Positions 2,869 to 20,374 of a stretch of 20,374 bases of DNA are shown piece by piece. A program made the translations under genes and the position numbers. The DNA is from Minisyncoccota bacterium. Its GTDB lineage: Bacteria > Patescibacteriota > Minisyncoccia > Phycocordibacterales > JAACPR01. The DNA lies in the NCBI GenBank assembly GCA_032117135.1, contig JAULZV010000047.1, positions 1 to 20,374 of the forward strand. The letters run 5' to 3'. Each line of letters starts with the position of its first letter. Position 1 is the first letter of the stretch. The notes beneath the pieces are model-generated. The model saw only the letters and a program-made list of their open reading frames with translations, had not been told where the DNA came from and searched no databases.

Positions 2869-2918
2869 CAACACAACACAACACAACACAACACAATACA
2901 ACACAATACAACACAACG
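2869..2918. repeat. Pentanucleotide microsatellite (ACAAC/ACAAT) x10
   Basis: Ten contiguous 5-nt units located between the lipoprotein stop and its terminator. Confidence 0.9.
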
Positions 2919-2919
2919 C

Positions 2920-2950
2920 CCCGCTTGTAGTACGCAAGCGGGGTGTTTTT
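2920..2950 (+). terminator. Rho-independent terminator of the lipoprotein gene
   Basis: Stem ccccgcttg pairing with caagcgggg, 7-nt loop, followed by tgttttt. Confidence 0.7.
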
Positions 2951-3744: not shown

Positions 3745-3830
3745 GCGTAGATGGCAGAGCGGTCAAATGCAATGGACTGTAAATCCATCGCCTTCGGGCT
3801 ACGTGGGTTCGAATCCCTCTCTGCGCACCA
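3745..3830 (+). tRNA. tRNA-Tyr (anticodon GTA), type II, CCA encoded
   Basis: Acceptor stem gcgtaga pairs with tctgcgc. Anticodon stem atgga/tccat closes the loop ctGTAaa. It has a long variable arm, a TpsiC loop ttcgaat, and a 3' end reading a-cca. Confidence 0.85.
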
Positions 3831-3834
3831 AACT

Positions 3835-3873
3835 AAAAAGGGGTCAGACACCGCAGGTGTCTGACCCCTTTTT
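3835..3873. terminator. Bidirectional intrinsic terminator after tRNA-Tyr
   Basis: aaaaa then ggggtcagacac, a cgcag loop, gtgtctgacccc, then ttttt. The stem is a perfect 12 bp. Confidence 0.75.
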
Positions 3874-3879
3874 AGTTAT

Positions 3880-3893: not shown

Positions 3894-4154
3894 ATGAATA
3901 TCGAAACAAAACAAATAATACATTTTATTAAAACACTTTTTATTGAAAACAAATTATTATTCCCAGGATGGGTACTTGTAGTGATGAGTACAGGAATGCT
4001 TCTGATGGGAATTGTCATCTTTATATCTTTGATTTCCATTCTGTATCTCAAAACTGACTTACTTACCGCCCTTCTGATTGGGTTTTTTGCAACAGGAATA
4101 CTTGGTATGTCAATTGGATCGTCTCTGCTTGCCAAAGTGTTCAAGGATAAATAA
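3894..4154 (+). CDS. Small (86 aa) integral membrane protein, 2-3 TM helices
   Basis: The sequence is strongly hydrophobic (LLFPGWVLVVMSTGMLLMGIVIFISLISILYL and LIGFFATGILGMSIGSSLL). The antisense ORF 3887-4144 looks non-protein-like. Confidence 0.5.
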   Translation: MNIETKQIIHFIKTLFIENKLLFPGWVLVVMSTGMLLMGIVIFISLISILYLKTDLLTALLIGFFATGILGMSIGSSLLAKVFKDK

Positions 4155-4196
4155 ATCTTTTTTCACGACATTTACAACTTTTACGTCTTTCACAGC

Positions 4197-4280
4197 AAAA
4201 AGCGCATCACATACTCGGAGAGTGACTCGCAGGCCTTATGGCCGAGGACGGGCACTCGAAGAGTATATGATGCGCTTTTT
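4197..4280. repeat. GC-rich structured element, copy 1: conserved ~55-nt core inside a 19/20-bp outer stem flanked by A5 and T5. It also sits where a bidirectional terminator between clpB and the small membrane gene would be.
   Basis: aaaaagcgcatcacatactc pairs with gagtatatgatgcgcttttt. The core at 4217-4260 is the reverse complement of the core at 18292-18334, identical except for 1 nt and a 3-4 nt loop. Confidence 0.6.
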
Positions 4281-4299: not shown

Positions 4300-6984
4300 T
4301 TACACCAATGCTTCCTCAGTAATATCTTTTTCTTTGTAAATAGCCTTCTTAGATCCTTTGCCATTAACATCAAATGAGAAGTCTTCGTTTTTGACCGAAA
4401 TGGTTACTGTTGTTCCATCACCTAATCCTTTGACGATAATCAATTGAGCAAGTGGGTTTAAGATTCGATCTTGTATTACACGCTTGAGTGGTCGAGCTCC
4501 ATATTGAGGATTATATCCTTCTTTAGCAAGATACGAGAACACAGACTTTGTAAGTTTGATTTTGATTTGCTTTCCAAGTAATCTCTGAGCTATTTTGTCC
4601 AATTGGATGTTTACAATTTCTTCGATTGCCTTTTCGGACAAAATATCAAAGATAATGACATCATCAAGACGATTAAGAAATTCTGGCCTGAAGTGATCTT
4701 TGAGCGCCTTTTCAACTTTTACTTTAGTTTCTTCATATTGAGATTTTTGAGAATCATCGGATGCAAATCCAATTGTTTGCATTTTGTCGATATGCTCTGC
4801 TCCAATATTTGAAGTCATAATAATCACCGTATTCTTGAAGTTTACCGTTCGACCCTTCGAATCAGTCAGTCGTCCATTATCAAGCACCTGGAGAAGAATA
4901 TTGAACACTTCAGGATGAGCCTTTTCGATTTCATCAAACAAAACAACTGAGTATGGTCGATGTCTGATTTTGTCAGTAATATTTGAACCATCGTCATGAC
5001 CAACGTATCCAGGAGGTGATCCAATCAGTTTTGAAATCGCATGCTTTTCCATAAACTCGGACATATCGATTCGAACCAATGCTTTGTCGTCATCAAAAAG
5101 ATATTCGGCAAGTGCTCGAGTTAATTCGGTCTTACCAACACCAGTTGGTCCCAAAAACATAAAAGATCCAATAGGTTTGTCGGGATCAGAAATACCTGCT
5201 CGAGATCGCTTGATCGCATTTGAGACTTTTCGAATAGCTTGATCTTGTCCAATAATTCGCTTCTTCAATTCGCTTTCCATTCGAGCAAGTTTGCTTGCCT
5301 CTTCTTCGAGCATTCGCTCAACAGGAATACCAGTCCATCGAGCAACAATTGAAGCGATATCTTCTTCACCAACTTCTTCTCTTAAGATTTTGCGAGAGCT
5401 CTGAAGATCATGAAGTCTTTTTTCTTGTTGTCGCAAATCTTTTTCAATCATAGGAATAGTGGCGTATCTAATTTCGGCAGCTTTGGAGAGATCAGCTCGT
5501 GCTTCGGCTTGTTCAGCTTCGATACGCAAATTCTCGAGATCACCTTTGCATGATTTGATATTCGTAATGGCTTCTTTTTCGTTTTGCCACTTGAGATCAA
5601 GTTCACGAATCCCCTCTTTGAGATCTGCGATTTCTTTTTCAATTACATTAAATCTATTTTTTTGAACAGTAGTTAATTTTTCTTCTTTTGTGAGCGCTTC
5701 GCGTTCGATTTCAAGACGCATGATTTTGCGCTTACCTTCTTCAAGATCTTCGGGCATGTTTTCGAGTGTAATTTTGAGAGTTGAAGATGCTTCATCAATC
5801 AAATCGACAGCCTTGTCGGGCAAAAATCGATCAGTGATATATCGAGACGAAAGTTCGACAGCGGCAACGATTGCATCATCAGTAATCCGCACACCATGAT
5901 AGAGCTCGTATTTTTCTTTAATGCCACGCAAGATAGCTGTTGCATCCTCGATTGTGGGTTCTGCAATAGTAACTGGCTGAAATCTTCGTGTAAGGGCTGA
6001 ATCTTTTTCAATATACTTTTGATATTCTTTAATAGTTGTTGCGCCAATTGCCTTGAGCTCTCCTCGTGCAAGAGCCGGTTTGAGCATATTAGATGCATCA
6101 AGTGATCCTTCAGACGCACCTGCTCCTGCAAGTGTATGGATTTCATCAATAAACAAAATAATCTTTCCACTTGCTTGTGTAACCTCTTTAAGAATTTTTT
6201 TGAGACGATCTTCAAATTCTCCTCTGTATTTTGTACCAGCTACAAGTGCTCCCAAATCAAGCGAGACGAGTTCTTTATCTTTGAGAGATTCGGGTACATC
6301 ATTTTGAATAATACGATTTGCAAGTCCTTCAACAATAGCAGTTTTACCAACTCCAGCCTCACCAATAAGAATCGGGTTGTTTTTGGTTCGTCTCGACAAA
6401 ATCTGAATGATACGATTAATTTCTTTATCTCGCCCAATAACAGGATCGATTTTGTTTTCGCGAGCTTTGTCTGTCAGACTCACAGTATACTTACGAATCG
6501 ATTTCATCGATTTGCCTGTTTCAGTTATTTTTGATCGACCTGTTTTGATTTCCGAAAGAATTTTAAACACTTCATCTCGATTGATTTTAAATTTATTCAA
6601 AAGATCCTTTGCTCGACTTGGAATTTCAAATAATGCCAAAAAGAGATGTTCGGTTGATACAAATTCATCTTTGAGACTTGTCGCAATCTTGGTCGAATAT
6701 TCGATTGATTGTGCAAGTTCAGGAGCAAGGTACACTTGATAAGATGGTGAAAGAGTATGCCCCGTATCAGGTACATCAATTGCTTCAAGAAGCGTGTCGG
6801 TAAGCAACATAATATCGACTTCTAATTTTTCGAGAAGCGAACCAATAATACTTTCCTCCTGAAGGATCAATGCAAGCAATAAATGCATTGGATTTACATG
6901 GTTTTGACCACGCTCAATAGCAAGTTCATGCGCATGTCTGATAACTTCTTTTGCTTTGGATGTGAAATTTTTGAATGGTTGCAT
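4300..6984 (-). CDS. clpB: ATP-dependent chaperone ClpB (AAA+ disaggregase)
   Basis: 894 aa. It has an N-terminal Clp_N region, two Walker A motifs (GEAGVGKT and GPTGVGKT), a long coiled-coil middle domain between the two nucleotide-binding domains, and a stop codon TAA at 4300-4302. Confidence 0.9.
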
Positions 6985-7030: not shown

Positions 7031-7840
7031 TCAAGTATTTGAAGGAGGTGAAAGTTGGTTGATAAGAGTTTTGATTGGCATAAAGACAGTCTTATCCTCA
7101 ATGTTTGCAACTCTAATACCGATAATTGAACCCGACAAGTTGAGGAGCACGCTCCCTGTCAAAACATTAAGAGGGTCTACTGAGGTAGTTATTGAAGACA
7201 AGGACTCACCTGTCTTATTAAGACTTGTAATCTCTCCAGTAGAAATACTTGTCTGAGTCGCTCCTGAAAGAGAGATGACACTTTGTGCAAGCCTGAGCGA
7301 ATCAGAAGACCCAAATGTTGCAGGAGTAAAATCCTTTGGATTATCCCCTTCAATACTCAATACCAAAAAGTCTGCAGTATCTGCGCCTCCAACAAATGAG
7401 ACAGGGAATGTGCGACTACCGTATGAAGCTCGATATACAGTCCTCTTGTCTACACGCCTTCGATCCACAACAATATCACCCGCTTGATTAAGTATTACTC
7501 CAAGAGTCACAAAATCCGCTGAGCTATTATTAGTTGTGAGTCGTACGATACTTTGTTCATTTTGAGCAACCGCATTGATAGATTGTTCTTCTTGATTAAC
7601 AACAACAGTCACCACTTCTTTTTTAGGCTGTGATGGTGGAGTATCTGTGATAATATTTTTGATATCTTCAACGGGTTGATTAGCAATTTCAATGGTTCGC
7701 TCGATCACACGATTGATTGTAGTAGTCACAGGTTCTGGGCTTTGTTGCATCAACGATACGACAACAATACCTGTTGCAATTGCAGTAATAAAACTTACAA
7801 GAAGACAAAGAAGAATAATCTGTTGGGTGTTTAAGATCAT
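7031..7840 (-). CDS. Membrane-anchored HtrA/DegP-like trypsin-fold protein with no PDZ domain. The catalytic His appears to be replaced.
   Basis: N-terminal TM helix. By-eye alignment to the DegP protease core matches DIVVDRRRV against yvVTNNHVV, ADTADFLVLSI against DIALIQI (Asp retained), and LTGSVLLNLSGSIIGI against GNSGGALVNLNGELIGI (Ser retained). Confidence 0.5.
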   Translation of the reverse strand: MILNTQQIILLCLLVSFITAIATGIVVVSLMQQSPEPVTTTINRVIERTIEIANQPVEDIKNIITDTPPSQPKKEVVTVVVNQEEQSINAVAQNEQSIVRLTTNNSSADFVTLGVILNQAGDIVVDRRRVDKRTVYRASYGSRTFPVSFVGGADTADFLVLSIEGDNPKDFTPATFGSSDSLRLAQSVISLSGATQTSISTGEITSLNKTGESLSSITTSVDPLNVLTGSVLLNLSGSIIGIRVANIEDKTVFMPIKTLINQLSPPSNT

Positions 7841-7867: not shown

Positions 7868-9079
7868 CTATACCAATTTTTGACGACGACACACTTGAGC
7901 AAGGATTTTGATGGCTCGTGAGATGTCTCGTGGACGTGTCGTGCGACCAAATGAAAATCTAAGGGATGAACGTGCACACCCTGCTCTTCCCATCGCTTGA
8001 AGTACCCGCGACACGAGAATATCCTTGTTACTTGCACATGCGGTCATCGATGCGCAGTTAACACCCAACTCATCCATTTGTATCACCGCAAAATCCGCAT
8101 CAAGACCTGCAATACATACATTCAAAATAGTAGGCACCGCATCTTCGACCGTTCCATTAATTTCAAATTGAATACCTTCTAATTCAAGTGCTCTGAGACA
8201 TAACTGTTTTAACCGAGCAAACTTTTGAGTATCTCGTTCAGTATATTTTTGAACGAGCATAAGCGCAGTATCAAGAGCTGCACAGTGTGCAGGATTTTCG
8301 GTACCAGGACGAAGACCTGATTCTTGTCCACCTCCATACATCAATGGGACAAGTGTGACGTATTGTTTTTTAATAAGAAGTCCCGTCATCTTGGGAGCAT
8401 AGATTTTTGATCCATCAATCGTAATCATATCTGCTCCAACCTTAGAAAGGAGTGCACCGTGAGTTACCACAGCCTGACTCGCATCAGTATGAAGATATGG
8501 AAATTGTCCAAATGTTCTTTTGGTTCGATTTTTGAATTTTTTGATGATGCTCGAAATTTTGTGAAGAGGTTGAAGTACACCCGTCTCATTAGAAACTGCA
8601 ATAATTGACACCAAAACTGTTTGATCTCGTATCTTTTTTTCTAATTCTTGAACATCTACTATTCCCTTTTTTGATACGGGAATAATTTCTACTTCTATGC
8701 CCATATATTCAAGGTGTGCAATACATTCACTTACCGCAGGATGCTCAATTGAAGAAAACAACATGTGCGGAACAAAATCACATTCACGAAGAGCCCGCTG
8801 AGCAAGACCGAGGATTGCAAGATTTGCAGACTCAGTTCCTCCTTGCGTAAAGATCACTTCATTTTCACGACAGTGAAAAAAACGAGCAATCGAACTTCGT
8901 CTGGCTTTGATTTCTTTTTTTATATCTTGAGCATCACAATAACTCGAAGATGGATTAAAAAAACGATCCTGTAGATATGGTTTCATTGCCCGAAAAACAA
9001 TCGGATCAACCGGAGTGGTCGACGCATAATCGAGGTGAATGTTTTTTCTGTTGATAAGATTATTTAAAAATGAGTTCAT
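7868..9079 (-). CDS. Cysteine desulfurase (NifS/IscS family, class V aminotransferase)
   Basis: 403 aa. The PLP-lysine region DGSKIYAPK matches SGHKIYGPK. Other matches include HTDASQA, SGLRPGTENP and a C-terminal GRAGCARSSLRFSFG. Confidence 0.8.
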   Translation of the reverse strand: MNSFLNNLINRKNIHLDYASTTPVDPIVFRAMKPYLQDRFFNPSSSYCDAQDIKKEIKARRSSIARFFHCRENEVIFTQGGTESANLAILGLAQRALRECDFVPHMLFSSIEHPAVSECIAHLEYMGIEVEIIPVSKKGIVDVQELEKKIRDQTVLVSIIAVSNETGVLQPLHKISSIIKKFKNRTKRTFGQFPYLHTDASQAVVTHGALLSKVGADMITIDGSKIYAPKMTGLLIKKQYVTLVPLMYGGGQESGLRPGTENPAHCAALDTALMLVQKYTERDTQKFARLKQLCLRALELEGIQFEINGTVEDAVPTILNVCIAGLDADFAVIQMDELGVNCASMTACASNKDILVSRVLQAMGRAGCARSSLRFSFGRTTRPRDISRAIKILAQVCRRQKLV

Positions 9080-11490: not shown

Positions 11491-11562
11491 AGGCGTGGGC
11501 GGGAATCGAACCCGCGCATGGAGGATTTGCAATCCACAGCGTTACCACTTCGCCACCACGCC
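11491..11562 (-). tRNA. tRNA-Cys (anticodon GCA), no encoded CCA, discriminator U73
   Basis: The reverse complement reads ggcgtgg-tg-gcg..cgc-t-gtgga-ttGCAaa-tcctc-...-gcggg-ttcgatt-cccgc-ccacgcc-t. The acceptor stem is perfect. There is one mismatch in the anticodon stem. Confidence 0.8.
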
Positions 11563-11635
11563 TTTGGTTCGTGTACTATATCATTTTATTTCTCAAGAGA
11601 AAACTCCTTAGATCCCCTACGCCCTTACCATATCC

Positions 11636-11663
11636 TTGGAAAATAAAATTTTTCTGATATGAT
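11636..11663 (+). promoter_or_regulatory. Candidate promoter TTGGAA-N16-TATGAT driving tRNA-Leu(TAG)
   Basis: ttggaa at 11636-11641 and tatgat at 11658-11663. The tRNA 5' end lies at 11674. Confidence 0.35.
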
Positions 11664-11673
11664 GTCTTCACAT

Positions 11674-11755
11674 GCCGAGGTGGCGAAATTGGTATACGCA
11701 CTTGCCTTAGGAGCAAGCGGGGTGACCCATGGAGGTTCAAGTCCTCTCCTCGGCA
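11674..11755 (+). tRNA. tRNA-Leu (anticodon TAG), type II
   Basis: Acceptor stem gccgagg pairs with cctcggc. Anticodon stem cttgc/gcaag closes the loop ctTAGga. It has a 13-nt variable arm and TpsiC loop ttcaagt. No CCA is encoded. Confidence 0.85.
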
Positions 11756-11810
11756 CATTGCACAGTTCGACACATTCTCATGTATGTCTAGCTTTGTACC
11801 CATTTTTCTT

Positions 11811-11839
11811 TTGAAATTTGGTATGAGGTTTGATACTAT
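11811..11839 (+). promoter_or_regulatory. Candidate promoter TTGAAA-N17-TACTAT driving tRNA-Leu(TAA)
   Basis: ttgaaa at 11811-11816, a 17-nt spacer, tactat at 11834-11839. The tRNA starts at 11850. Confidence 0.45.
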
Positions 11840-11849
11840 GAGTACACTT

Positions 11850-11931
11850 GCTCGGGTGGCGGAATTGGTATACGCGCACGACTTAAAATCGTGTTCCATC
11901 TGGAATATGGGTTCGACCCCCATCCCGAGCA
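11850..11931 (+). tRNA. tRNA-Leu (anticodon TAA), type II
   Basis: Acceptor stem gctcggg pairs with cccgagc. Anticodon stem cacga/tcgtg closes the loop ctTAAaa. It has the same architecture as the neighbouring Leu tRNA, with TpsiC loop ttcgacc. Confidence 0.85.
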
Positions 11932-11987
11932 CAGGAGCGTTATCAGTATCACCACACAGCTCCGTACGCGCACATACAGTATCTTAT

Positions 11988-12063
11988 GCACCCATAGCTC
12001 AGTCGGTAGAGCAGTCGCCTCTTAAGCGAACGGTCGTAGGTTCGAATCCTACTGGGTGCACCA
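11988..12063 (+). tRNA. tRNA-Lys (anticodon CTT), CCA encoded
   Basis: Acceptor stem gcaccca pairs with tgggtgc. D stem gctc/gagc. Anticodon loop ctCTTaa. T arm gtagg-ttcgaat-cctac. The 3' end reads a-cca. Confidence 0.85.
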
Positions 12064-12250: not shown

Positions 12251-13276
12251 ATGGACCTTAGCAGAACAGATTCGATAGACGGAAGAAGTGTCTTCCAGCA
12301 AATGCTTTATACTGGATTCATCATCTTGATGTGTCTAGCTGTATTTCTCATCACCTCAATGGTGCAATTCACCTTGATTGCATGTGCCGATCTTGACACA
12401 GCTATCGCATTTATACGCAGCTTTTGGTTTTTGATCCTGAGTATTGCTGCAACGGGAACATTCCTTTTTTTGATCAGAAAGGAAATCTGGATTCAAAATA
12501 CAGAAGGAAACACGATGGTTTATGCGATCGACAACTTTATCTCTCATAATTTGACCGAGGAGCAAGGTAATGGAACCAAGTTTATCTTATTCGGTCCTGG
12601 CGCCTCCCTCAAACCATGGTGGATATTACCAGTCGGAACAGTAGAGGTTGAACGAGAACCGACCTTCCCTTACAATAAAACAATAACCGCCCAAGCACAG
12701 GACGGAAATAAGGTTGAGATCAGAGTGAGTTACTCTTGGAGAGCACATGCACCTCGTCTTTCTCTCTATCTTCAAGGAATCAAGGAAGGTGAAAAACAGC
12801 CGGATGAAGCTCTGCAATTTATAGGAGATACACTTGGTCAATTTGTGGAAGAAATATGTGCACAAGCTCAAGTCATTGAGCAAATTCTCACATATCAATC
12901 CGCATTTACCGACAACCTCACAGGAAGATTGAGTCAGTTCGCAAAAAGACAATACGGCATCGAAATTGTAGGTGTCGCGTTTGTTGAATGCGACGAACCT
13001 GCAGCCGTCATCGCTCAACGTAATCAAGAATCGATCAACAAATCTATTCAGAGAACAGCGAGAATATACATGGATGATTTTGGAATGTCAGGAGACGCTG
13101 CAGTAAAAGTTGCGTCTGCTCAAGCTGGCATTGCTGGTATTTCGGTGAACGACAATGTATTCACTCTTAACGTGGGCAACCCTGCCTTACTAGACCTAAT
13201 CAATGGTCTTGATCCAGCAACCAAACAAATCCTAATTCAAGCGTTCGCAAGACTCGGAAACAGAAACAGGAGATAA
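12251..13276 (+). CDS. Membrane protein with a probable SPFH/band-7 (stomatin/prohibitin-like) domain
   Basis: Two N-terminal TM helices. By-eye SPFH-like segments are KTITAQAQDGNKVEIRVSYSWR and YGIEIVGVAFVECDEPAAVIAQRNQESINKSIQRTAR. GC content is higher than in the core genes. Confidence 0.45.
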   Translation: MDLSRTDSIDGRSVFQQMLYTGFIILMCLAVFLITSMVQFTLIACADLDTAIAFIRSFWFLILSIAATGTFLFLIRKEIWIQNTEGNTMVYAIDNFISHNLTEEQGNGTKFILFGPGASLKPWWILPVGTVEVEREPTFPYNKTITAQAQDGNKVEIRVSYSWRAHAPRLSLYLQGIKEGEKQPDEALQFIGDTLGQFVEEICAQAQVIEQILTYQSAFTDNLTGRLSQFAKRQYGIEIVGVAFVECDEPAAVIAQRNQESINKSIQRTARIYMDDFGMSGDAAVKVASAQAGIAGISVNDNVFTLNVGNPALLDLINGLDPATKQILIQAFARLGNRNRR

Positions 13277-13895: not shown

Positions 13896-13932
13896 CAACT
13901 AAACAAGGGCGACACCTCTGGTGCCGCCCTTG
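13896..13932 (-). terminator. Intrinsic (bidirectional) terminator ending the minus-strand small-protein operon
   Basis: Stem caagggcg pairs with cgcccttg, with inner pairs cacc/ggtg. It is T-rich on both sides, 18 nt past the stop at 13950. Confidence 0.55.
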
Positions 13933-13949
13933 TTTGTCACACTACGGAT

Positions 13950-14216
13950 TTATCTCAAGATCTGAGGAACATCTGACCCCTTGACTCCGAGTGTATTGAG
14001 TAGAATTTCGATAATAGTAAACACAGATATCATAATGAGTAAACCAACTATCCCCCACAACATGTGCTCCTGACCAACTCGACGGACTTCGGGCTTGTCT
14101 GCACCTCTGATGTAATCAAAGATTCCGTAGACAAATATCACAAGCGCGACAGCAAACAAAACTTGAATGATTGGATTGACTATTGCACTTACTGCTTTTT
14201 CGAGCTGATCTTGCAT
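13950..14216 (-). CDS. Small two-helix membrane protein, paralog A of a VirB2/TrbC-like (pilin-like) family
   Basis: 88 aa. Helix 1 reads VLFAVALVIFVYGIFDYIRG. The charged loop reads ADKPEVRRVGQEH. Helix 2 reads MLWGIVGLLIMISVFTIIEILLNTLG. It shares the family motif [LY]M[LI][WY]G[IV][IV].L[FL][VI]M.S[VL][WF] with paralogs B-D. Confidence 0.55.
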   Translation of the reverse strand: MQDQLEKAVSAIVNPIIQVLFAVALVIFVYGIFDYIRGADKPEVRRVGQEHMLWGIVGLLIMISVFTIIEILLNTLGVKGSDVPQILR

Positions 14217-14224
14217 CAGATATA

Positions 14225-14605
14225 TTAGTTAGCTCTATATCCAGCTGATGGAACTGATGGAACTGATGGTGGAAGATTAGTGTTGCGGTTTGTACCAAGA
14301 ATTGTATCACTCAAGATGGCCACAAGACCCCATACGCTTGTCATCACAAACAATGCGATAATCCCCCAAATCATTAATGTTTTTGCGTCATCCTTTTTAT
14401 CACTAAAAAGATATCTCATAATTCCCCACAGGAACGCAAGTAAAGCAAGACCAATCAAAATCGGAATGATTCGAGCAACAAGACCGTCAATTTTGTTGAG
14501 TAATGAAAACAATCCACTTGTATCAACACCCGAGTTTGCAAACACAAAAAACGGAGTCAACAGACCCACGACCGCTACTGAAATTTTACTTAAAACTTTT
14601 TTCAT
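14225..14605 (-). CDS. Paralog B of the same pilin-like family, with a signal peptide
   Basis: 126 aa. Signal peptide MKKVLSKISVAVVGLLTPFFVFA/NSG. Helix 1 IIPILIGLALLAFLWGIMRYLFS. Helix 2 LMIWGIIALFVMTSVWGLVAILSDTILG. Confidence 0.55.
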   Translation of the reverse strand: MKKVLSKISVAVVGLLTPFFVFANSGVDTSGLFSLLNKIDGLVARIIPILIGLALLAFLWGIMRYLFSDKKDDAKTLMIWGIIALFVMTSVWGLVAILSDTILGTNRNTNLPPSVPSVPSAGYRAN

Positions 14606-14633
14606 ATTTTTGTTACTATTTTTAATACTTAGT

Positions 14634-14643
14634 ATTATATCAC
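14634..14643 (-). promoter_or_regulatory. Extended -10 box (TGaTATAAT) in the 118-nt gap between paralogs C and B, suggesting an internal promoter
   Basis: The reverse complement of 14634-14642 reads tgatataat. The ATG of paralog B lies about 29 nt downstream. Confidence 0.4.
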
Positions 14644-14723
14644 TTTATAAAATTTAAACAGAGTTTTGTGTGGATTACCGCAATCAAAAACACACAACAC
14701 TTCCACATAAATTATGTACCACT

Positions 14724-15131
14724 TTAAAATTGAGGAATCCCTACATCAGTATGCCCAATCGTACTCGCAAGAATTGCAACAATCGTCCACACCGACATCA
14801 TAACAAAGAGTCCGATAACACCCCACAACATGAGCTTGCGTCCATCCGAGCGTGCAGTGTCACTTTCTTGACCTTTATACATATATTTCATCATTCCGTA
14901 CAAAAAAACCAACACCGTTAGAGCCACAATTATTGTTACGGCGTACCGACTTCCTTTGAGGATCAGGTCTGCTACAAACTCTTGAAACGTCGCATTGTCA
15001 CGTAACCCATCAGTATTCAACACAGGTTGTGCAGTACTACCAGTTGAAAAATCCCCCGATACATCTTGCGGAATAGTGTCTTGAGCATACACGGGTGGAA
15101 CTATTTTTTGTACTATATACTGTAATATCAT
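14724..15131 (-). CDS. Paralog C of the pilin-like family
   Basis: 135 aa. The N-terminal region is signal-like (IVPPVYA/QD). Helix 1 reads AVTIIVALTVLVFLYGMMKYMYKG. Helix 2 reads LMLWGVIGLFVMMSVWTIVAILASTIG. Confidence 0.55.
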   Translation of the reverse strand: MILQYIVQKIVPPVYAQDTIPQDVSGDFSTGSTAQPVLNTDGLRDNATFQEFVADLILKGSRYAVTIIVALTVLVFLYGMMKYMYKGQESDTARSDGRKLMLWGVIGLFVMMSVWTIVAILASTIGHTDVGIPQF

Positions 15132-15139
15132 ATAAAATA

Positions 15140-15505
15140 TTATATCATTTCTTGTGGCAGATTATTATCAAAAATATCCTCAATGTCTTGGACTGGTGCG
15201 AATTGTTGTTCAGGAGATACTGGTGCATCCGGAGAGTATTCAACATCTCCAATATATGATGGACCGAGCAAGCTCTGCATTAAATGAATAATTCCCCATA
15301 GACTTGTCATAACAAAGAGAGTAAGAATTCCATATAACATATAACTTCGTCCCTCTGTACGTAATTTATCATTGGAAGATCCGAAGAAGACAAATTTTAC
15401 TATTCCCCACAAAAAGGCAAGGAGTGCAAAACCGATTATAGTATAGATAACTCGATCAATCAGAGAAAGGAATTTTTGAAATAAATTGAAAATATTTTGA
15501 GACAT
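15140..15505 (-). CDS. Paralog D of the pilin-like family, with an acidic C-terminal tail
   Basis: 121 aa. Helix 1 reads IYTIIGFALLAFLWGIVKFVFFG. Helix 2 reads YMLYGILTLFVMTSLWGIIHLMQSLLG. It is separated from paralog E by 3 nt. Confidence 0.55.
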   Translation of the reverse strand: MSQNIFNLFQKFLSLIDRVIYTIIGFALLAFLWGIVKFVFFGSSNDKLRTEGRSYMLYGILTLFVMTSLWGIIHLMQSLLGPSYIGDVEYSPDAPVSPEQQFAPVQDIEDIFDNNLPQEMI

Positions 15506-15508
15506 ATG

Positions 15509-15919
15509 CTAGACCATTAGACTTGAATCCCCACTTGGAATATTAACATCGCCTTCGTATGATTCGGTTTCGACACCACGGATTGTTGATTCGATAATAT
15601 TTGCAATAACTTGAGCACCGAGAAGTACTAGAGCCCCGATAATAGTCCAAAATAATGTTTCTCTTGCAGTTTTGAGTTGTTCAGGTCGCCCTTGCGCCAC
15701 AACAAACATAAATCCCGCATAGACAAGTGCCAAGGTCACTGCTACTGCACCAAGCTGCACAAGCACTTTAAAGAAGGCATTGAGTACTTGAGCTACAGAC
15801 CTAAATGATGTAGGACTTTCTAATTGAATATTAATTGTATCTCCCGCATGAGTAGTAAGCGGAACTCCTATAATTAAGAGTGTGCATGTTGCTAATATAA
15901 ATGGAATTATTTTTGACAT
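15509..15919 (-). CDS. Paralog E (divergent) of the pilin-like family, with a signal peptide
   Basis: 136 aa. Signal peptide MSKIIPFILATCTLLIIGVPLTTHA/GD. The mature part reads ...LNAFFKVLVQLGAVAVTLALVYAGFMFVVAQGRPEQLKTARETLFWTIIGALVLLGAQVIANIIESTIRG. The helix-loop-helix pattern, including LNAFF and LLGAQ, recalls TrbC-type pilins. Confidence 0.5.
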   Translation of the reverse strand: MSKIIPFILATCTLLIIGVPLTTHAGDTINIQLESPTSFRSVAQVLNAFFKVLVQLGAVAVTLALVYAGFMFVVAQGRPEQLKTARETLFWTIIGALVLLGAQVIANIIESTIRGVETESYEGDVNIPSGDSSLMV

Positions 15920-15923
15920 GATG

Positions 15924-16346
15924 TTATTTTACTATATCGATAAAGAATGCTTTAGCACCTAATTTTTGAAGTAACTCCCCGATTGTAATAAATGCCATAA
16001 ACATAATTAAGAACCCGACAACAACTCTCTTAAAAATATTTTTGGCTTTTTGAATTTGTGTAGGATTACCCACTGCAGTAATCAGAAGTACCCCCGCGTA
16101 CATGAACATAAATGCCACAATAAAGGTGGCGAACATAAATATCCAGTTCATCAGATTTTGAATCAAATTCATCAAGTGTACAAAATCACATGGATCTTGT
16201 CCCTGACCACCACAGGTAATGAGAGGGTTCCTATCACTTGTTCCTGGACCTGTCGGCTGTCCCATTTGACCCTGAGCCAAGGCAAGGCCTGGAATACATA
16301 TTAGAGTAAGCAGTACCGTAGCGAAGATGTGTTTTAAATTATTCAT
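15924..16346 (-). CDS. Paralog F (divergent) of the pilin-like family, with a signal peptide and two Cys residues in the mature N-region
   Basis: 140 aa. Signal peptide MNNLKHIFATVLLTLICIPGLALA/QGQ. The Gly/Gln-rich region contains C..C. The two helices are IFMFATFIVAFMFMYAGVLLITAVG and VVVGFLIMFMAFITIGELL. Its start overlaps the stop of the upstream gene by 8 nt. Confidence 0.5.
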   Translation of the reverse strand: MNNLKHIFATVLLTLICIPGLALAQGQMGQPTGPGTSDRNPLITCGGQGQDPCDFVHLMNLIQNLMNWIFMFATFIVAFMFMYAGVLLITAVGNPTQIQKAKNIFKRVVVGFLIMFMAFITIGELLQKLGAKAFFIDIVK

Positions 16347-18267: not shown

Positions 18268-18357
18268 AAAATCCGTACGATACAGATACTCTCCGAGTGC
18301 CCGTCCTCGGCCTGTGGCCTGCGAGTCACTCTCCGAGTATCTGTATCGTACGGATTT
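18268..18357. repeat. GC-rich structured element, copy 2: the same conserved core closed by a perfect 23-bp stem. It sits where a terminator for gyrA would be.
   Basis: aaatccgtacgatacagatactc at 18269-18291 pairs perfectly with gagtatctgtatcgtacggattt at 18335-18357. The core at 18292-18334 reads tccgagtgcccgtcctcggcctgtggcctgcgagtcactctcc. Confidence 0.6.
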
Positions 18358-18376: not shown

Positions 18377-20374
18377 TTAGAAACACACAATAGAAGCAAT
18401 CTCGTCACCTTCTCGAAGTTTCATAACTCGCACACCTTGTGTTTGTCGTCCAAGCTTTGGAATTTCGGAGATCGAAACTCGAATTACTTGTCCTTTTTTG
18501 GACATTGCAACAACTTCTTCGTTTTCGTCAGTTACCACTTTACCAGCAACGAGAGCACCTACCTTAGGAGTAATACTTGCAGTTTTGATTCCTGAACCAC
18601 CTCTTTTTTGAACTTTGTATTCTTTCATGGTTGTTTGTTTACCATATCCTTTAGATGAGAAAGTAAAGAGTCTTGGATTTGGAGAATCCTTAGAGACGAC
18701 ACCAGCACTGACAACTACGTCATCTTTTTTGAGCAAAAATCCTCGAACACCTGCAGCTGTTCGACCCATTTGTCTAATATCTGACTCTTTAAACCTAATA
18801 GATTGTCCTTTTTGACTTGCAAGAATAATGTCATCACCCTTGGTCACAAACATCGCTTCGATGAGACTATCGTCATCCTTGAGACCAATTGCAATAATAC
18901 CGTTACGCCGCACATCATAAAATCCTCGTGCGTCTACTTTTTTGGCATTACCTTCACGCGTCACCATCACCACAGAGAGGTCGTCTGATTTTTTGATTTC
19001 TTTGGGCATTGGGAGTACTGATGTTACTCGTTCATCTTGACCAATTGATAAGAAGTTTGCGATAGACTTACCACGCGTTGCTCGCTTGCCTTCAGGAATA
19101 TCATAAGTACGTAGTTTGAACACCTTACCCTTATCAGTGAAGAATAAAAGTTCGCTATGATTAGTAGTATTGAGAAATGTCTGTACAAAATCTTCTTCTT
19201 TGGTGTTGAGATCAACTACCCCAACTCCCCCGCGTTTTTGTTGTTTATACTCAGTTGGATCGGTTCGCTTGATATATCCCCCTTTGGTAAGAACAAGAAC
19301 TGTTTGATCATCAGGAATAAGATCTTCTTGAGAAAGATTTTTGACACCATGTTTGACGACTTTGGTTCGACGCGCATCGCCAAATTTTTCTTGAATTTCG
19401 GCAAACTCTTTTTTGATGAGTGCCTTCATCTTTTTTTCACTTTCGAGAAGTTCTCGAAGTTCTTTGATCAATAGCTGTACCGCTCTGAGTTCATCCTCAA
19501 CTTTTTTACGTTCAAGTCCAGCAAGCTTTTGGAGTCGCATCTCAAGAATCGCATCAGCTTGGCGCTGTGAAAACTTGAATTGCTTCATCAAATTAACTTG
19601 TGCAGTCGGTGTATCTTTGGATGCTCTAATACATTTGATTACTTCATCAATATGATCAAGCGCCTTTTTGAGACCAATGAGAATATGCTCTCGATCAAGA
19701 GCTTTGTTGAGGTCAAATTGTGTCCTTCGGGTCACAACCTCAAATCGGTGTCGAATGAATTCTTTGAGTGCCGCCTTAAGCGAAAGCGTCTGAGGCACAC
19801 CGTCGACAAGCGCAACCATATTAAAATGGAATGTATCTTCAAGTTGAGTGTGTTTGTAAATATAATTGAGAACATTTTGAGGGTGAGCAGATGGCTTGAT
19901 ATCAATGACTACCCGAATATCATCAGTAGACTCGTCACGAATATCTTTGATACCTTCGAGTTTTTTGTCTTTGACAAGATCCGCAATCTTAAGAATCATT
20001 TCTGACTTATTTACTCGATATGGGATTGAGGTAATCACAATTTGAAAGGCACCTGATTTGAGTTCGACAATCTCAGCCTCACCTCGACACACTACTCCTC
20101 CTCGTCCACTGACATAGGCTTGATGGATGTCTTTTTCATTAAAAATAACTCCTCCCATCGGGTAGTCTGGACCTTTGACAAATTGAAACAAATCCTCGCT
20201 GGTTGCATTAGGATTATCAATCAAATACACGATAGCATCCATCAACTCACCGAGGTTATGTGGTGGAATATTAGAAGCCATACCTACCGCAATACCCAAG
20301 GTACCATTGAGAAGAAGTGCAGGCACAGCCGTCGGAAGCACTATCGGTTCGCGAGTTCGAGAGTCATACGTAGG
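18377..20374 (-). CDS. gyrA: DNA gyrase subunit A. The N-terminal ~150 aa lie beyond the window end.
   Basis: The frame stays open to position 20374 (…PTYDSRTREPIVLPTAVPALLLNGTLGIAVGMASNIPPHNL), matching the GyrA region that follows the catalytic Tyr. The C-terminal beta-pinwheel domain carries a GyrA-box-like QQKRGGVG. The track start is an internal GTG. Confidence 0.9.
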   Translation of the reverse strand, partial: PTYDSRTREPIVLPTAVPALLLNGTLGIAVGMASNIPPHNLGELMDAIVYLIDNPNATSEDLFQFVKGPDYPMGGVIFNEKDIHQAYVSGRGGVVCRGEAEIVELKSGAFQIVITSIPYRVNKSEMILKIADLVKDKKLEGIKDIRDESTDDIRVVIDIKPSAHPQNVLNYIYKHTQLEDTFHFNMVALVDGVPQTLSLKAALKEFIRHRFEVVTRRTQFDLNKALDREHILIGLKKALDHIDEVIKCIRASKDTPTAQVNLMKQFKFSQRQADAILEMRLQKLAGLERKKVEDELRAVQLLIKELRELLESEKKMKALIKKEFAEIQEKFGDARRTKVVKHGVKNLSQEDLIPDDQTVLVLTKGGYIKRTDPTEYKQQKRGGVGVVDLNTKEEDFVQTFLNTTNHSELLFFTDKGKVFKLRTYDIPEGKRATRGKSIANFLSIGQDERVTSVLPMPKEIKKSDDLSVVMVTREGNAKKVDARGFYDVRRNGIIAIGLKDDDSLIEAMFVTKGDDIILASQKGQSIRFKESDIRQMGRTAAGVRGFLLKKDDVVVSAGVVSKDSPNPRLFTFSSKGYGKQTTMKEYKVQKRGGSGIKTASITPKVGALVAGKVVTDENEEVVAMSKKGQVIRVSISEIPKLGRQTQGVRVMKLREGDEIASIVCF

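Follow-up and report, generated by a model that had tools for sequence, protein, structure and literature searches.

A GC-rich 55-nt core at the centre of two unrelated terminator-like palindromes in a Minisyncoccota bacterium: a candidate for a very small mobile element

In a 20,374-bp stretch of DNA from a Minisyncoccota bacterium (the complete contig JAULZV010000047.1 of a metagenome-assembled genome; the whole stretch is called the window below, and coordinates refer to it unless another locus is named), a GC-rich core of about 55 nt is present twice, each time in the exact centre of a long palindrome whose arms are unrelated to those of the other copy. In our judgement the chances are about even (probability roughly 0.5) that this core is a lineage-specific, very small and non-autonomous GC-rich palindromic element, similar in kind to repetitive extragenic palindromes (REPs), miniature inverted-repeat transposable elements (MITEs) or GC clusters, which integrates at the tips of terminator hairpins. 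The outer helices are best read, from their sequence, as two unrelated bidirectional intrinsic terminators that existed before the core arrived. Three features, namely the sharp borders of the core, its exact placement on the dyads and the opposite orientations of its copies, speak for the copying of a discrete unit to two unlinked sites and against inheritance or convergence. The two copies had been noticed in an original prediction, which described them as a GC-rich core of about 55 nt in long stems of unrelated sequence and placed copy 1 at the 3' end of clpB and copy 2 between gyrA and a methyltransferase gene, each at the 3' end of a gene and flanked by A- and T-tracts. The coordinates (Table 1), the gene calls and an 18-mer search bear out this description, and bidirectional termination at these sites is plausible. 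The nesting at terminator dyads is noteworthy, and the anatomy had been read correctly; the argument for selection on a structure that was built on it is mistaken.

The two cores, of which copy 1 is the reverse complement of copy 2, agree at 52 of 55 positions plus one indel (the identity is also put at 98 %), and they end at sharp borders in flanks that share no similarity. Apart from the apical loop (TGT versus ATAA), they are distinguished by a single substitution, TCC versus TTC, in a 3x3 internal loop, and all 19 predicted base pairs of the core, corresponding to 38 paired positions, are identical. When an 18-mer of the core was searched with up to three mismatches, these were the only two sites in the window, and shuffled windows gave 0.00 matches. 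The core has no coding capacity. The shared sequence itself includes the inverted ends, ATACTC...GAGTAT and GAGTG...CACTC, which are identical in both copies; the original objection, that the terminal inverted repeats of a MITE would have to be identical, is thereby answered. The core is GC-rich in an AT-rich window (41 % GC overall), as had been stated, but it is not the sole strongly GC-rich intergenic sequence, since the terminator at 822-865 reaches at least 65 % GC in 40-nt windows. Both copies were recovered in independent contigs of the Logan assemblies, one of them with single nucleotide polymorphisms (SNPs) in the flanks and a different number of tandem repeats. Because the strain variant L069 from these assemblies holds the same copy 1 with an identical core, SNPs in its flanks and one change in the outer stem, the insertion is no assembly artefact and is fixed among the sampled strains. 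Full self-complementarity of the outer helices, as originally described, does not hold for copy 1 in the window; its stem has one C/A position on the plus strand of the window (G.U on the minus strand), which is a perfect pair in L069. Between copy 1 and an open reading frame (ORF) of 86 amino acids lies a strain-variable 9-nt tandem repeat, GTAAAAGTY (4155-4196 in the window, 7546-7605 in L069), with about 3 units in the window and 6.7 in L069, an expansion by 27 nt.

The core sits exactly on the dyad of each palindrome, with arms of 14/14 nt around copy 1 and 17/17 nt around copy 2 that show no positional homology to each other, and at both sites the distance from the stop codon to the hairpin is 19 nt (ClpB stop at 4300, GyrA stop at 18377). 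Other intergenic hairpins of the window are perfect palindromes with A- and T-tract flanks, arms of 13-22 nt and loops of 3-4 nt, and about eight terminator-like palindromes occur in the 20 kb. The outer arms of both copies, AAAAAGCGCATCA.../...TGATGCGCTTTTT for copy 1 and AAATCCGTACGATACAG/CTGTATCGTACGGATTT for copy 2, fit this pattern. A GC-containing stem followed by a U-tract, as expected for an intrinsic terminator, can be read at both sites, with the stem GCGCAUCA and UUUUU on both strands for copy 1, and UUUUGU on the minus strand for copy 2. Folding of each copy had been proposed as a check with the original prediction; the complete hairpins are strongly folded, with -53 to -60 kcal/mol and z-scores of about -9 to -11 as RNA on either strand, and about -30 kcal/mol (z about -8.8) as DNA. 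When the cores were removed in silico, leaving AT at the junction, the remaining sites folded at -20.3 and -26.7 kcal/mol, compared with -19.4 and -24.1 kcal/mol for plain orthologous terminators of two relatives (L070 and L073), and the core-less sites are thus predicted to fold like ordinary terminators. With about eight such palindromes in 20 kb, a random insertion would meet a dyad with a probability of only about 4e-4 per event; either hairpin tips would be the target, or only insertions at tips would survive.

Named homologues assign the window to the Patescibacteria / Paceibacteria, with Taylorbacteria, Zambryskibacteria, Parcubacteria and Nomurabacteria among them. The comparison with relatives, whose orthologous loci were fetched through homologues of ClpB and of the methyltransferase, revealed sites that lack the core at both positions. 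In three species with 88-89 % identical ClpB (L070, L073 and L080), the clpB 3' site carries a plain bidirectional terminator with an unrelated stem and no core (Table 1), and the clpB site of the window shares the frame of these terminators, five A, a stem of 9 bp and five T, the core occupying the position of the loop. The spacer between gyrA and the methyltransferase gene has 36 bp and no hairpin in L060, L061 and L075, 154 bp and no obvious palindrome in L076, and a plain palindrome with 26-nt arms in L077. Orthologous empty sites, as expected for a mobile repeat, are therefore found for both copies, the relatives being other species with different stems. It follows from the terminator nature of each outer helix that its self-complementarity is no evidence for selection on a common structure. 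The two stems are not homologous and match the ordinary terminators of the window and of the relatives, so that they cannot be cited as compensatory covariation, and what had been taken for one selected structure, as opposed to the spread of a repeat, is best read as two unrelated resident terminators with the same insert. Within the core itself the support for covariation is zero, because none of the 19 pairs varies.

Palindromes of this clade were conspicuous at several further places. The stem of the clpB 3' terminator differs completely in each of the four species (L070, L073, L080 and the window), and to judge from these sequences, terminator palindromes turn over very fast in the clade, the frame of A-tract, stem and T-tract being kept. 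In L062, a relative with 52 % GC, the spacer between gyrA and the methyltransferase gene is filled by two long GC-rich hairpins (8124-8224 and 8264-8325) that are unrelated to the core; one of them has a perfect outer stem of 21 bp, and a 103-aa ORF called across them is probably spurious. A terminator-like palindrome of L060 (5206-5261) has perfect arms of 18 nt which enclose a 20-nt insert, GGTTGAGTCTTGCGACCCGA, and possibly represents a further hairpin with additional sequence at its tip. Behind the 3' end of a tRNA in L073 (13191-13278, compare 3745-3877 of the window) come a perfect palindrome, whose arms measure 22 nt, and then the tRNA 3' end once more in inverted form, so that a nested hairpin results; the same tRNA is followed in the window by the plain palindrome only. 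The arrangement in L073 suggests that the palindrome has grown outward by template switching, or else that an att-like duplication took place.

While the anatomy of the copies and the empty sites in relatives are observations, the steps of mobility that would connect them are inferred. According to this proposal the 55-nt core was copied into the exact centre, that is the dyad and hairpin tip, of two terminators. Integration would take place where an extruded terminator hairpin is single-stranded, at its tip, with single-stranded DNA or a cruciform as the target, and the move would be catalysed by an enzyme encoded elsewhere in the genome, for which a hairpin-recognising HUH/Y1 transposase of the IS200/IS605 and REP-associated tyrosine transposase (RAYT) type or a transposase whose target duplication is TA or AT are candidates. 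By the insert, the stem-loop of about 14-18 bp would grow to about 35-40 bp, while the base of the stem and the U-tract would be left undisturbed. Since these parts are untouched, clpB, gyrA and the 86-aa ORF should still be terminated, and the element would have a safe haven there; it would be transcribed at mRNA 3' ends and may incidentally stabilise them.

Several observations weigh against a mobile element. Two copies in one species are all that is known, and neither a high copy number nor presence/absence polymorphism nor a transposase to match is on record; that the copies are known from a 20-kb window only is the main weakness of every interpretation. No transposase-like gene is found among the genes of the window, and none of the loci compared holds an empty allele with the same outer stem minus the core, the nearest relative already having a different stem. 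The target-site duplication is ambiguous: the junctions, CA[C/T]|ATACTC...GAGTAT|GTG and CAG|ATACTC...GAGTAT|CTG, fit no duplication, AT or TA alike, because the target itself is palindromic. At 55 nt the core is smaller than almost all described MITEs. Finally, the copies share their internal loops and bulges and differ at unpaired positions only, which agrees with a functional RNA or DNA structure as well.

The searches for further copies and for known families yielded no relative of the core; the large-scale scans relied on exact words, by which diverged relatives could be missed. At gathering thresholds, Rfam assigned nothing but five tRNAs in the entire window, so that no family matched the core at or above threshold, and in E-value mode both copies gave sub-threshold matches to microRNA hairpins, small nucleolar RNAs and long non-coding RNAs of at most 27 bits, compared with gathering thresholds of 49 to 100; the matches to microRNA precursors, whose gathering scores are 52 to 100, reflect nothing beyond a long hairpin. 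A scan of 185,579 species-representative genomes with GAGTGCCCGTCCTCGGCC gave 37 single matches, all in high-GC genomes and none with the second half of the core, and a scan of JGI metagenomes with CCGTCCTCGGCCN{2,8}GGCCTGCGAG gave 21 matches, all in coding sequence of GC-rich contigs; both sets are attributed to chance. Two scans of the viral contigs of IMG/VR returned six chance matches and the contig L079, which shares ACTCTTCGAGTGCCC(G) with the core and was rejected, the shared sequence being a coding tandem repeat in a giant-virus P9-like protein. This giant-virus-like contig also encodes a 2C-adaptor kinase besides the P9 minor capsid protein, and the identity of its repeat (2390-2460) to 15-16 nt of the left end of the core was judged to be chance. 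Comparison with phages and plasmids by blastn gave a single 39-nt match (query positions 32-70) with an E-value of 0.8. About 167 kb of related Paceibacteria loci (14 sources with about 156 kb, and L080) were searched by blastn-short and with a covariance model of the core (R1), which detected only the known copies, and no autonomous insertion sequence (IS) with the same ends is present in the window or in these relatives. Six-frame peptides of the core, used to catch ORFs called across other copies, had no match among 5.8 billion predicted proteins at E-values up to 10. The Logan contigs L059 and L069 re-cover the window only.

A number of known structures were considered and rejected. An integron attC site needs conserved outer boxes (R''/L'' and L'/R') and a variable centre, and the reverse is seen here, namely a conserved centre with variable outer arms. 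The possibility that the core is a tRNA fragment or an att site, raised with the original prediction as a refutation, is not supported, the core having no match of more than 10 nt elsewhere in the window, the five tRNAs included. A riboswitch or leader does not agree with the position of copy 2, which lies upstream of the methyltransferase promoter at the 3' end of gyrA, and a diversity-generating retroelement or retron structure was dismissed with no reverse transcriptase nearby. The core also lacks the REP and REPIN signature of an imperfect palindrome of 20-40 bp with an unpaired GTAG or CGTC at one end. A CGTC does precede the apical stem (CGTC-CTCGGCC-TGT-GGCC..), but a CGTC-tagged REP was rejected in view of the absence of A/T first pairs and of a CCA tail.

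Among the rival explanations, the one we consider least improbable, though unlikely, is that the core is a functional structured RNA module placed on terminators, either a 3'-end element that binds protein or blocks nucleases or a conditional terminator, which would be active in the purine-loop orientation and maintained by selection. The four differences that separate the copies are confined to unpaired positions (0 of 38 paired versus 4 of about 18 unpaired; P about 0.01 if they are independent and about 0.1 with the apical loop taken as a single change), and the asymmetric loops and bulges are kept in both copies. The purine orientation contains 3x3 GGA/GGA (or GGA/GAA) internal loops, and it folds better than the pyrimidine orientation (-24.9 versus -19.7 kcal/mol, z -4.1 versus -2.8). 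It would be carried by the transcripts of gyrA and of the 86-aa ORF, so that every copy has one carrying transcript; however, the clpB transcript carries the opposite orientation, and relative to clpB and gyrA, both of which are encoded upstream of their copies on the minus strand, the cores face opposite ways. A near kink-turn was recognised by eye in the purine strand (GGCC-GAG-GA-CGGG opposite CUCG-CA-GGCC), where GGCC, the GAG bulge and the G.A pair are present, but the second pair, at 2b.2n, is A.C instead of the standard A.G. This explanation is further weakened by the Rfam results, limited to sub-threshold hairpin models, by the lack of covariation and by the absence of homologues in relatives with the same genes and gene order, from which it follows that the function would be species-specific and very young.

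Improbable to a higher degree is a DNA-level binding site, in which two direct ACTCNNNGAGT boxes, 40 bp or about four helical turns apart and separated by a GC-rich spacer, would be bound by a dimeric or tetrameric DNA-binding protein or by a recombinase. This box has five matches in the window (0.39 expected), four of which lie inside the two cores, it is pseudo-palindromic and its spacing is the same in both copies; but the boxes are equally just the two sides of hairpin helices 1 and 2, no regulator or recombinase gene stands beside either copy, both sites are in terminators at 3' gene ends and not in promoters, and the exact placement at the dyad is left unexplained. We give a similarly low weight to the possibility that the core came first and that the outer stems grew around it by fold-back template switching (quasipalindrome extension), by which the flanks are copied in inverted form. 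The clade is indeed rich in very long perfect palindromes with arms of up to 26 nt, the palindrome behind the tRNA of L073 is flanked by the inverted tRNA 3' end, and the strain variant differs at one position of the outer stem, with a perfect pair in place of a mismatch. The core would nevertheless have to reach two unlinked sites, so that mobility is required here as well, and the stem of copy 1 has the exact A5-9 bp-T5 form of the plain terminators in three relatives, for which a pre-existing terminator is the simpler account. Coincidence or an assembly artefact, for which the low copy number alone could be quoted, is practically refuted by the shuffle expectation of 0.00 for the 18-mer and by the recovery of both copies in the independent Logan contigs described above.

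Comparison with known systems shows where such an element would stand. Bacterial MITEs with TA duplication (IS630/Tc1-type, e.g. Correia/NEMIS and RUP) are non-autonomous, carry terminal inverted repeats, are intergenic and co-transcribed and can add or modify terminators. Like these, the core has inverted ends, common to both copies, and a junction compatible with TA or AT duplication; unlike them, it is 2-5 times smaller, its duplication is ambiguous and no parent insertion sequence is known, and strict placement at a palindrome dyad is not known as a feature of those MITEs. Cyanobacterial small dispersed repeats (SDR), mobile palindromic sequences of 21-27 nt, have reportedly been seen within other hairpin-forming sequences by Elhai and co-workers in 2008; they are shorter, belong to another phylum, occur in high copy number and have no sequence similarity to the core. 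Class C group II introns insert after terminator stems. Palindromes are also selected as targets by some transposases that recognise REPs, and IS1397/ISKpn1, IS621, ISPpu9 and other elements of the IS110 family insert into REPs, which offer a safe haven at gene 3' ends (PMC1525189, PMC12288879). The target of the core is likewise a hairpin-forming palindrome at a gene 3' end, but those elements are coding and 1-2 kb long, whereas the core has 55 nt and is non-coding, and its target is an ordinary terminator and not a REP.

REPs are short, GC-rich imperfect palindromes which are extragenic, lie mostly downstream of genes or between convergent genes and are found at mRNA 3' ends, and REPINs are hairpin-forming non-autonomous elements (PMC3733652, PMC3116915 for REPs; PMC3116915 for REPINs). 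The location of the core agrees with this, both copies being extragenic and 19 nt past a stop codon and one of them lying between convergent genes, and it shares with REPs and REPINs, which are mobilised by RAYT Y1 transposases, the short GC-rich palindrome 3' of genes that forms one long or several small hairpins (PMC3733652, PMC3116915). A REP-like family, which was among the candidates named in the original prediction, is hence a reasonable proposal. In contrast to REPs and REPINs, the core has no unpaired GTAG, its CGTC is internal and its stem does not fit the CGTC families (stems of 8-9 bp, A/T first pairs, CCA tail), its two boxes are direct instead of inverted repeats, the known copies number just two and a RAYT gene was not seen in the window; nesting at the dyad of another palindrome is no described feature of REPs. 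GC42 is a GC-rich hairpin mobile element in the AT-rich spacers of yeast mitochondrial DNA with dinucleotide target sites and changes concentrated in loops (PMC4478555). The core resembles these GC clusters as a GC-rich hairpin of about 40-55 nt in the AT-rich spacers of a compact genome, with loop-biased substitutions, candidate short target sites and no transposase of its own (PMC4478555), but GC42 belongs to another domain of life, shows no sequence similarity, targets AG dinucleotides and is not described for terminator tips, and it has many copies with demonstrated presence/absence polymorphism. In the literature on small repeats in bacteria of the candidate phyla radiation we found nothing relevant, such repeats being hardly described there. 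The core is accordingly a new sequence family, a small palindromic intergenic repeat that cannot be filed in any defined family, and we suggest only tentatively that it could represent an undescribed class of ultra-small (about 50 nt) non-coding mobile elements in bacteria of the candidate phyla radiation, which would home to single-stranded terminator hairpin tips and create a hairpin within a hairpin while the host terminator is kept working.

The remainder of the window has further features of some interest. Near the contig end, two low-complexity ORFs with internal repeats, neither with a Pfam match, occupy 308-658 and 865-1980, one of them Thr-rich (TTTMTQGTTTTAGTR units) and the other coding for a 371-aa Ala/Pro-rich protein; their internal repeats are probably the reason why assemblies break there. 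About six small paralogous genes form an array at 13950-16346 beside a gene for a solute-binding protein, an arrangement conserved in relatives, and four of them have hits of T4SS_pilin type (two at full strength, two weak). Four of the five tRNA genes are clustered at 11491-12060 on both strands, where the Logan assemblies break, and one lies at 3745-3827.

Table 1 Coordinates of the two core copies, their surroundings and terminator-like palindromes (positions in the window unless a relative is named)
Feature	Coordinates	Strand	Sequence and remarks
Core copy 1	4211-4266	-	56 nt, 57 % GC; minus-strand sequence ATACTCTTCGAGTGCCCGTCCTCGGCCATAAGGCCTGCGAGTCACTCTCCGAGTAT; 89.6 bits against model R1
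Core copy 2	18286-18340	+	55 nt, 62 % GC; ATACTCTCCGAGTGCCCGTCCTCGGCCTGTGGCCTGCGAGTCACTCTCCGAGTAT; 86.1 bits against model R1
Left outer arm, copy 1	4197-4210		AAAAAGCGCATCAC; read as arm of a resident bidirectional terminator of clpB and the 86-aa ORF; pairing reaches 4190
Right outer arm, copy 1	4267-4280		ATGATGCGCTTTTT; one mismatch to left arm in the window, perfect in L069; pairing reaches 4286
Left outer arm, copy 2	18269-18285		AAATCCGTACGATACAG, 17 nt; interpreted as arm of a resident terminator behind gyrA
Right outer arm, copy 2	18341-18357		CTGTATCGTACGGATTT; on the transcribed minus strand hairpin, then UUUUGU
ACTCNNNGAGT box, copy 1	4213-4223	+	ACTCGGAGAGT; pseudo-palindromic 11-mer; second direct copy at 4254-4264
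ACTCTCCGAGT box, copy 2	18288-18298	+	second copy at 18328-18338, 40 nt start to start
clpB	4300-6984	-	gene upstream of copy 1; mRNA carries core in pyrimidine-loop orientation
86-aa ORF	3894-4154	+	convergent with clpB; called at same position in relatives; mRNA would carry copy 1 in purine-loop orientation
gyrA, 3' part	18377-20341	-	gene upstream of copy 2; mRNA carries core in purine-loop orientation
Methyltransferase gene, 176 aa	17666-18196	-	downstream of copy 2; promoter-like TATAAT between copy 2 hairpin and start codon
Plain terminator at clpB 3' site	L070 12694-12731		AAAAAGACCTGCAATTGCAGGTCTTTTT
Plain terminator at clpB 3' site	L073 ~12719-12750		AAAAAGGGACGGCCgaagGGCCGTCCCTTTT
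Plain terminator at clpB 3' site	L080 ~7570-7606		AAAAGGGGCGCCCCGaaCGGGGCGCCCCTTTT
Terminator-like palindrome	3831-3877
Terminator-like palindrome	821-856
Terminator-like palindrome	13901-13935
Terminator-like palindrome	2965-2993
Terminator-like palindrome	2915-2947		arms 92 % complementary, 7-nt loop

Paceibacteria and other bacteria of the candidate phyla radiation have tiny, streamlined genomes. If terminator tips serve as safe landing sites, the element described here would show how selfish DNA persists in such genomes, and it could reshape mRNA 3' ends. The two copies also hold a warning for method, in that a repeat nested in unrelated palindromes mimics compensatory covariation without selection on a common structure, and if the element were widespread, it would systematically produce false signals of covariation when structured RNAs are searched for.

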